Below, in pieces: positions 1,455-2,368 of a DNA stretch of 64,000 bases. This stretch comes from Shigella phage sb2. The DNA lies in the sequence record PQ666540. One strand, 5' to 3'. Numbering within the stretch: the first letter of the stretch is position 1; each line of letters begins with the position of its first letter. Under the pieces are notes generated by a model. It was not told the origin of the DNA. It saw only the letters and a program-made list of their open reading frames with translations, and ran no database searches. Both the position numbers and the translations under genes were made by a program.

Positions 1455-1781
1455 TCAATTAGAAAATAAATTTATCCAAGACTGTTCTTTAATTAAAAAT
1501 GGCTCAGAATCATATGCCATTAAACTTTGGGTGATTAGTCCTTTAAAAGGTCCATCAATAAATTCCATGGTAAAATATGGAATTTTATTCATTAATCTTG
1601 CATTAGGAGCAGTACACAAAACTCTGCATCCTTTGAATACACCTTTTTGTAATTTGTATTGCTTAGGATAAAATTCGCTCAAGACGTTGTTATTTGCCAA
1701 AATTTCAAAATGATTCACCAATTTATTTTTAATAGTTTTTGGCGAAAAATAAAGATATTCGAAAAGCTGTGTGTCTGTCAT
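1455..1781 (-). CDS. hypothetical protein (about 108 aa), translationally coupled to the upstream P-loop gene
   Basis: ORF track 1455..1835; internal ATG at 1781 overlaps the stop of the upstream ORF by 1 nt. Confidence 0.45.
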   Translation of the reverse strand: MTDTQLFEYLYFSPKTIKNKLVNHFEILANNNVLSEFYPKQYKLQKGVFKGCRVLCTAPNARLMNKIPYFTMEFIDGPFKGLITQSLMAYDSEPFLIKEQSWINLFSN

Positions 1782-2368
1782 CATTGCATTCCGATTACGA
1801 AAAACTGCGGACGAGTAATACCACCAATGCAACATTTAATATTGCAACAGTATTGTACAGTTTCAATATGAATATCGTAAATTTTATCCATATCAGGAGA
1901 TTTAACCGGCTCATCGATTATATACAAAATTCGAGAAAGCGATAAACCTCTGAACTTGCTGCCTCTATTACCAACAAAACTACGGACAGAATCAGTAAAT
2001 AAGCGGAATCGAATATCGTCACTAGAATAACGAGAAAATTCTTTTTTAATGTGGCCTGCAGAAATTTTAGCGTAAGCTGAAGTATTAGAAAGAACAATAA
2101 CTGTTCCACCATCATACAGCCAATTAGCAGCAAAGTTAGTCACAGCAGTTGATTTACCGGATTGACGTCCACCATCTAGTCGAAGTGTGCAATACTGTTT
2201 GAGTAAGTCTTCAAATGGTAGGATATAATCGTTTTTACAAATTTCTTCTACTCTAGCATCAGAATGGTATGTAAAAGCATTCATCAGGGATAGATAAGGA
2301 CCAGTTAAAAATGTTCTCATTTTATTCTCTCTAAATTTGGGCCATTCCATGGCGCATGAATTGTCCAT
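1781..2368 (-). CDS. P-loop NTPase of unknown function (Walker A GGRQSGKST; Cys-rich C-terminus)
   Basis: Walker A motif LDGGRQSGKSTAV; start uncertain (ATGs at 2368, 2350, 2320; the last has the best SD-like context). Confidence 0.6.
   Translation of the reverse strand: MDNSCAMEWPKFRENKMRTFLTGPYLSLMNAFTYHSDARVEEICKNDYILPFEDLLKQYCTLRLDGGRQSGKSTAVTNFAANWLYDGGTVIVLSNTSAYAKISAGHIKKEFSRYSSDDIRFRLFTDSVRSFVGNRGSKFRGLSLSRILYIIDEPVKSPDMDKIYDIHIETVQYCCNIKCCIGGITRPQFFVIGMQ

Follow-up and report, generated by a model that had tools for sequence, protein, structure and literature searches.

Terminase-derived ATPase gene vs.8 of a T4-like Shigella phage, its linked partner vs.7 and a candidate structured leader RNA

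The present analysis deals with the gene pair vs.8-vs.7, and with the leader that precedes it, in Shigella phage sb2 (PQ666540); all coordinates refer to a window of 64,000 nucleotides (nt) of this phage, that is the whole stretch of DNA analysed. The gene pair is already known in T4, and the terminase ancestry of Vs.8 as well as its link with the terminase sensor Avs2 were published in 2026 (PMC13601566). In this report (Nat Commun, August 2026), vs.8 emerged when T4 proteins were screened against EcAvs2 with AlphaFold 3, co-expression of T4 vs.8 and EcAvs2 was reported to be toxic through Avs2 activation, and Vs.8 was predicted to occupy the EcAvs2 pocket that also receives the terminase ATPase (AlphaFold 3 interface predicted template modelling score, ipTM, of 0.84); the terminase homology and the Walker A and B motifs of vs.8 were reported as well. 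Its authors leave the function of vs.8 undecided, suggesting a role in anti-defence that Avs2 has come to recognise; Vs.7 is unmentioned in their Avs2 experiments on vs.8. Ksap1 and Ksap2 resemble Vs.8 as small lineage-restricted phage proteins with a terminase ATPase-like fold that activate Avs2, but they occur in Dhillonvirus and Stephanstirmvirinae, not in T4-like phages, and are described just in terms of terminase-like secondary structure, sequence homology and Walker A/B motifs being given for vs.8 only (PMC13601566). Within the same cluster, T4 Vs.3, also called TadIV-1, acts as a sponge for N7-cADPR, the signal of type IV Thoeris, as reported in a study where T4 vs.8-vs.3 was cloned with 'the promoter of vs.8' and each gene was also expressed singly (PMC13243611). 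As for vs.7, it has been termed a conserved hypothetical protein (PMC10869271).

To this known pair, the analysis adds a conserved SH3-like partner of Vs.8, namely Vs.7, which is probably translationally coupled to it, and a leader RNA, which is a more novel element than the pair itself. The reading favoured here, with modest confidence, is that Vs.8 and Vs.7 would form a heteromeric accessory ATPase acting in phage-host conflict and not in packaging. The function of Vs.8 bears on the co-evolution of phages and nucleotide-binding leucine-rich repeat (NLR)-like sensors.

The window comes from a Tequatrovirus, i.e. a T4-like phage; Escherichia phage ECp13 and Shigella phage Sfk20 share 98.5% identity with the region, which also matches hundreds of Tequatrovirus records. 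From the annotation of BW-1 and T4, together with direct alignments, the two open reading frames (ORFs) are identified as orthologues of T4 vs.8 and vs.7, which are catalogued but uncharacterised genes. The product of vs.8 is 87% identical to T4 Vs.8 (NP_049732), the protein used in the EcAvs2 toxicity report (PMC13601566), across the conserved 179 residues and matches the profile phrog_1488 (E=1.8e-77, 176 of the 177 profile positions covered), while that of vs.7 is 98% identical to T4 Vs.7 (NP_049731), with just two conservative substitutions, and matches phrog_2049 (E=4.6e-54). A preliminary description of this stretch, which could place neither protein in a known T4 family, is corrected on that point; the characterised vs-region homologue with a mundane role that it had considered as a refutation did not turn up, neither gene having been characterised. 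All database relatives of Vs.7 carry PF26834, a model missing from the Pfam copy searched. Both vs.8 and vs.7 are real coding genes under purifying selection, as attested by their low ratios of nonsynonymous to synonymous polymorphism (pN/pS) relative to T4, i.e. 0.14 for vs.8 and 0.04 for vs.7 with pS of 0.21-0.27, and by protein homologues in other genera down to about 37% (vs.8) and 34% (vs.7) identity.

The ORF 1781..2368 singled out in the preliminary description (195 amino acids) is indeed there, and the Walker A box claimed for it, LDGGRQSGKSTAV, is present, but the true start lies further in, as conservation begins at Met17. Together with the Shine-Dalgarno-like AGAGAG found 6 nt upstream of this ATG, this sets the vs.8 coding sequence at 179 amino acids (Table 1); in other genera as well, the conserved Met follows a comparable purine-rich element. 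Bases 2321..2368, i.e. the 16 extra N-terminal codons, are part of a conserved non-coding leader. In T4, the annotated Vs.8 product (NP_049732) has 219 amino acids instead of 179, and its start is probably wrong since the first 40 residues run over the conserved leader and the segment encoding them (NC_000866 64793..64912) shows no conservation at the protein level in any other genus; in the window, this frame is closed by a stop, and it is closed in other genera as well.

Vs.8 is a single RecA-like (ASCE) domain of 179 amino acids descended from the N-terminal ATPase domain of a T4-type large terminase. Among 18 family members with identity down to 41%, the sequence D-G-G-R-Q-S-G-K, R113, the RG motif R124-G125, E137, the N-terminal helix YLxLMxAF and the C-terminal F-F-V-I/L-G-x-Q are all invariant, and D136 is nearly so. 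The terminase-type P-loop R-Q-x-G-K-S/T is kept, including the cis-Arg. A weaker profile match is obtained with the large-terminase family phrog_2 (E=6.4e-6), and Pfam Terminase_6N matches 15 of the 18 Vs.8 relatives at E up to 1, with a best E of 6.8e-5. When the family profile is aligned to gp17, the large terminase of the window phage itself, three motifs fall in register (E=0.0026), with GGRQSGKS facing 161-SRQLGKT-167, the RG motif facing VRG and ILYIIDE facing MIYIDE (251-256). Plain BLASTP of Vs.8 against this gp17 is marginal (E=0.083, P-loops aligned), so that the relationship requires profiles or structure to be seen.

Compared with gp17 (Terminase_6N; PDB 2o0h), which has 610 amino acids, Vs.8 is devoid of everything downstream of the C-motif strand; it contains no C-terminal RNase H-like nuclease domain and ends at residue 179 after the last strand of the ATPase core. 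It further differs by its own conserved N-terminal helix and by its location in the early vs cluster with Vs.7 as partner, whereas the partner of gp17 is gp16. Neither a small-terminase gene nor a late packaging operon lies beside vs.8, the neighbours of which are the internal-protein gene and vs.7. The tandem RecA-like domains with helicase motifs I-VI expected of superfamily 2 (SF2)/DEAD-box proteins are absent from Vs.8. Searches of solved-structure sequences, with single sequences as well as profiles, returned nothing significant for Vs.8 or Vs.7, and NCBIfam holds no model for either. Vs.8 represents a rare second, truncated packaging-motor ATPase with intact catalytic residues, expressed from an accessory early region.

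Regarding the Cys-rich tail pointed out in the preliminary description, the CCNIKCC stretch does exist but lies 15 residues before the C-terminus and is unconserved outside Tequatrovirus, its cysteines being replaced by unrelated sequence in homologues at or below 57% identity. Residues 160-168 are also the only low-confidence loop of the Vs.8 model (predicted local distance difference test, pLDDT, <50). Because it falls in a low-confidence loop and is replaced in other genera, this stretch is a lineage-specific variable loop rather than a functional family motif. An interpretation as a zinc or disulfide motif was considered and rejected, the stretch being unconserved and modelled with low confidence, and a Pfam conotoxin match on CCNIKCC (E=0.003, below cut-off) is spurious.

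Vs.7 is predicted to consist of two N-terminal helices arranged as a helical hairpin and of an SH3/KOW-like barrel, and the protein is found only in T4-like phages. In the model, the core (residues about 40-95) adopts a small five-stranded barrel, comparable to the small KOW/SH3-like barrels of NusG, Spt5 and KIN17, with two GPFKG-like turns reminiscent of the KOW motif. The conserved core reads Y-x-F-x-x-G-P-F-K-G...P-x-F-x-x-E-F-I-x-G-P-x-K-G-x-x-T-x-S-L-x-x-Y-D, while the first 40 residues vary in sequence, and the Moonvirus and Kanagawavirus forms lack them. An exhaustive profile search over 1.84 billion representatives retrieved 11 clusters, all T4-like, besides two giant proteins whose match is spurious; a word-indexed search retrieved 42 proteins, all labelled PF26834, and a BFVD fold search for remote homologues recovered only members of the T4-like family.

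That a P-loop NTPase and a small partner are encoded by tightly linked genes of the early vs region, as put forward in the preliminary description, holds well in view of the conserved ATGA link. At the junction, which reads ...ATG CAA TGA TG ACA, the TGA of vs.8 (1783-1781) shares one base with the ATG at 1781-1779, just as described for the 108-amino-acid ORF; the ATG at 1784-1782 gives a 4-nt ATGA overlap and a Vs.7 of 109 amino acids, an equally possible form and the one that T4 and five other genera carry in their annotation (the 4-nt ATGA being annotated in T4, KEN39, AS6, RZ, KLB31 and Merlin). Of eight genera whose loci were compared for linkage, seven retain the ATGA overlap, including Tequatrovirus, Jiaodavirus, Karamvirus, Gaprivervirus, Moonvirus and both sampled Kanagawavirus phages; as an abutting pair with this overlap, the two genes are conserved in enterobacterial Tevenvirinae. 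The Gln-stop/Met-Met junction has persisted though identity between the proteins has dropped to about 35-40%; the pair stays while its flanks (denV, internal proteins, vs.6, vs.5) vary from genus to genus. The translational coupling deduced from the overlap in the preliminary description must be qualified accordingly; since overlaps are common in the genome, the overlap alone is weak evidence, and its conservation across genera is the stronger argument. Judging from these loci, vs.7 is linked to vs.8 strongly, not absolutely. In tblastn searches, vs.8 is found in 1010 phage records and vs.7 in 929, the vs.8 matches being confined to enterobacterial phages, bar a few near-identical records that bear the name of another host, such as Pseudomonas phage PsgM02F. 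Kosakonia phage 305 (MZ348423) bears an unannotated short-form vs.7 of 89 amino acids (locus L009, 3016..3285), with ATGA over the vs.8 stop.

Upstream of the pair, a spacer of 150 nt separates the stop of the internal-protein gene (2474) from the vs.8 start. It is about 95% identical to T4 and more conserved than the synonymous sites of the adjacent genes, despite a differing upstream gene, which is denV in T4 and the internal-protein gene in the window. The leader core, ACCUGUAAUAAGGUCGAGCCCAAGUGCGGUAA, is nearly invariant over eight genera where Vs.8 is only about 40% identical; it spans roughly 85 nt and comprises a 5' hairpin as well as a short helix, inside which lie the hairpin ACCU-GUAAUA-AGGU and an invariant strand, CGAGCCCAAGUGCGGUAA. 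A hand-drawn structure, with a 5' hairpin (P0/P1/P1b) and a helix Pb enclosing hairpin Pa and the 18-nt invariant strand, was tested on 23 distinct sequences, which are the same as those used to derive it and entail some circularity. In this set, 95.6% of cells are paired vs. 35-40% with slid partners, compensatory changes affect 6 of the 19 pairs, including all three Pb pairs (A-U, U-A, C-G, G-C, U-G), and the covariation score reaches 0.25 against 0.108 +/- 0.013 after shuffling, none of 500 shuffles attaining it; the G-U pairs work solely on the gene-sense strand. The covariance model hits the window just once, at 2372..2456, with 65.9 bits.

Support for this structure comes from conservation and covariation only, the single-sequence folding energy being not significant (z-score of -0.17) and RNAalifold run on the raw MAFFT alignment giving almost nothing, owing to the variable hairpins. 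The alternative GCCCA/UGGGU pairing of the minimum free energy fold was rejected, as it is not maintained in GCCAG-type sequences. No Rfam 15 covariance match was obtained at E up to 1 for the window region and four other variants, and no convincing Sigma-70 promoter or terminator was found in the leader. In its T4-like 3' part, GGA motifs occur in hairpin loops upstream of the Shine-Dalgarno sequence, which may be taken as a hint at CsrA-type control.

The leader RNA extends beyond T4-like phages, its core being common almost base for base to these phages, Vequintavirus and at least two other non-T4-like phage contig groups. In Vequintavirus, the copies detected by the covariance model are intergenic and near a tRNA cluster; in a 44-kb phage group, the RNA lies downstream of an endolysin gene, with an intrinsic terminator after it. 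One more non-T4-like context group comes from a metagenome scan. No gene context, be it lysis genes or tRNAs, is consistent across the phage groups. A host-derived or bacterial origin was considered and rejected, with no match in 5,426 E. coli genomes, and one match in 185,579 species genomes is due to chance, as it comes without the flanking hairpin. The leader and vs.8 are separated by an internal-protein gene in one Jiaodavirus-like contig, and some Karamvirus and Kanagawavirus-like phages carry tandem copies of the core (loci L007, 1558..1795; L023, 5089..5301; L028, 8970..9183); in the second tandem copy, the 5' hairpin is shortened and the invariant strand has lost 2 nt, and the first copy in L007 shows mismatched Pb strands, as if recombinant. 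Altogether, the leader looks like an undescribed structured RNA with an origin independent of vs.8, which heads the vs.8 operon in T4-like phages. Taken alone, it is likely to be a genuine new functional RNA class and, if confirmed, would add to the phage-borne structured RNAs. That the leader RNA and Vs.8/Vs.7 form one functional unit in T4-like phages, whether an RNA-protein machine or an RNA-controlled ATPase in phage-host conflict, is a quite unlikely proposition.

In the mechanism proposed for the pair, coupled translation would supply Vs.8 and Vs.7 in fixed proportion, and the two proteins would assemble into a heteromeric ATPase; as judged from its motifs, Vs.8 would bind and hydrolyse ATP as the catalytic subunit, while Vs.7 may act as the regulatory or targeting subunit, in the way gp16 (TerS) does for gp17. 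The module would fulfil an early accessory function in phage-host conflict, outside packaging, and Vs.8 would be seen by Avs2 because it retains the terminase ATPase surface. The preliminary description had raised an anti-defence or takeover role as a possibility. The anti-Thoeris gene vs.3, located four genes downstream, marks a conflict-related accessory neighbourhood and counts in favour of this proposal. Several observations weigh against it. Pfam Terminase_6N scores window Vs.8 at 14.5 bits, below the cut-off of 22; among the Part I genes (Vs.3-Vs.8), each expressed by itself, vs.3 (TadIV-1) was alone in impairing type IV Thoeris (PMC13243611); and no fused Vs.8-Vs.7 homologue was seen among database relatives. 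In Gelderlandvirus, vs.7 is missing and a vs.5 homologue comes right after vs.8, and Vs.8 alone was active in the Avs2 assay, so that Vs.7 is not obligatory. In addition, start/stop overlaps of 1-8 nt are common between neighbours in the window (e.g. 865..872, 1086, 4886..4889). These overlaps, the Gelderlandvirus arrangement, a Vs.8 that is folded and active by itself and the lack of the N-terminal helices in Moonvirus and Kanagawavirus Vs.7 would all suit two independent genes, the overlap reflecting the compact layout of T4 genomes and the synteny common descent; this is clearly unlikely, however, considering that the pair remains adjacent with the same ATGA in seven of eight genera while flanks come and go, and that the junction outlasts the divergence of both proteins.

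A rather unlikely alternative is that Vs.8 acts as a non-catalytic decoy, which, expressed early, would mimic the terminase ATPase surface and occupy or mis-time Avs1-3 or Upx, with Vs.7 masking or modulating it. Such a role is in line with the predicted placement of Vs.8 in the EcAvs2 terminase pocket and its engagement of the sensor in vivo, with the suggestion that non-terminase activators may be anti-defence proteins (PMC13601566) and with the presence of the proven anti-defence gene vs.3 in the cluster, but the sole experiment shows activation of EcAvs2, not inhibition, and the invariant catalytic Glu, Walker A Lys and RG motif would be needless for a passive mimic, though ATP binding could matter. 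The homology to the gp17 ATPase domain could also be taken to mean that Vs.8 contacts gp16, gp17, the portal or DNA ends, and regulates the terminase or another motor as an accessory of DNA packaging or transaction. This is very unlikely given the position of vs.8 in the early accessory cluster and not in the late packaging operon, the missing nuclease and portal-binding parts and the failure of tblastn to reveal divergent homologues in other T4-like phages sharing the packaging machine. Just as improbable is an RNA-directed module, in which Vs.8 (RecA1-like) and Vs.7 (KOW-like) would act on RNA, possibly the leader of their own operon; the leader RNA is also present in Vequintavirus and other phages where no vs.8 was found, the internal-protein gene can separate it from vs.8, and a single RecA domain makes no helicase, the sequence pointing to terminase instead of DEAD-box proteins.

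Every gene in the first 6 kb of the window is on the minus strand, in the order e, denV, internal-protein gene, leader, vs.8, vs.7, vs.6, vs.5, vs.4 and vs.3 (Table 1), and the order vs.8-vs.7-vs.6(GrcA)-vs.5-vs.4-vs.3 is the same in T4. The locus upstream of the leader is hypervariable among phages; the internal head protein gene stands between denV and the vs operon in the window, whereas T4 has ipII and ipIII between denV and e. Directly downstream of vs.7, vs.6 encodes a GrcA-like autonomous glycyl-radical cofactor and is absent from the examined Gelderlandvirus, Gaprivervirus, Kanagawavirus and Moonvirus loci. The vs.3 copy of the window is the long form (about 90 amino acids), which is the form found active in PMC13243611.

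Table 1. Position of the vs.8-vs.7 locus, its motifs and neighbouring genes, and gp17 in the window.
Feature	Position	Strand	Remark
e (lysozyme)	3433..3927	minus	
denV	2957..3373	minus	
Internal-protein gene (DUF7412 / phrog_3155)	2474..2947	minus	MKTYQEFI capsid-targeting start
Leader RNA	2333..2456	minus	Core 2372..2456; T4-like-specific 3' hairpins 2333..2371
Shine-Dalgarno-like AGAGAG	2327..2332	minus	6 nt upstream of vs.8 ATG
vs.8 coding sequence, 179 amino acids	1781..2320	minus	Conservation and ribosome-binding site
Walker A / P-loop GGRQSGKST, residues 50-58	2147..2173	minus	Read from sequence
Walker B with catalytic Glu ILYIIDE, residues 131-137	1910..1930	minus	Read from sequence
CCNIKCC stretch, residues 158-164	1829..1849	minus	Variable loop
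Gene junction ATGATG overlapping vs.8 stop TGA (1781-1783)	1779..1784	minus	Sequence
vs.7 coding sequence, 109 amino acids (108 from second ATG)	1455..1784	minus	
vs.6, GrcA-like	1086..1448	minus	Pfam Gly_radical E=2.4e-18
vs.3 homologue	328..606	minus	
gp17 large terminase of the window phage	33875..35707		

Two GenBank labels of these genes were rejected. The label 'endoribonuclease' given to vs.7 and vs.8 (BW-1, teqdroes, JK45 and others) is supported by no nuclease profile, and 'large terminase subunit' for vs.8 (Sfk20, EO1) overstates a single-domain relationship; records bearing one or the other include OR125554 (BW-1), MN895438, MK962757, KP869104, MW341595 and OQ223305. In denV, an in-frame TGA at 3053..3055 stands where BW-1 has a Cys codon (NP*KS vs. 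NPCKS), the frame being otherwise intact to the usual stop; this is either a sequencing error or a recent nonsense mutation, which would truncate endonuclease V (138 residues) at residue 106.
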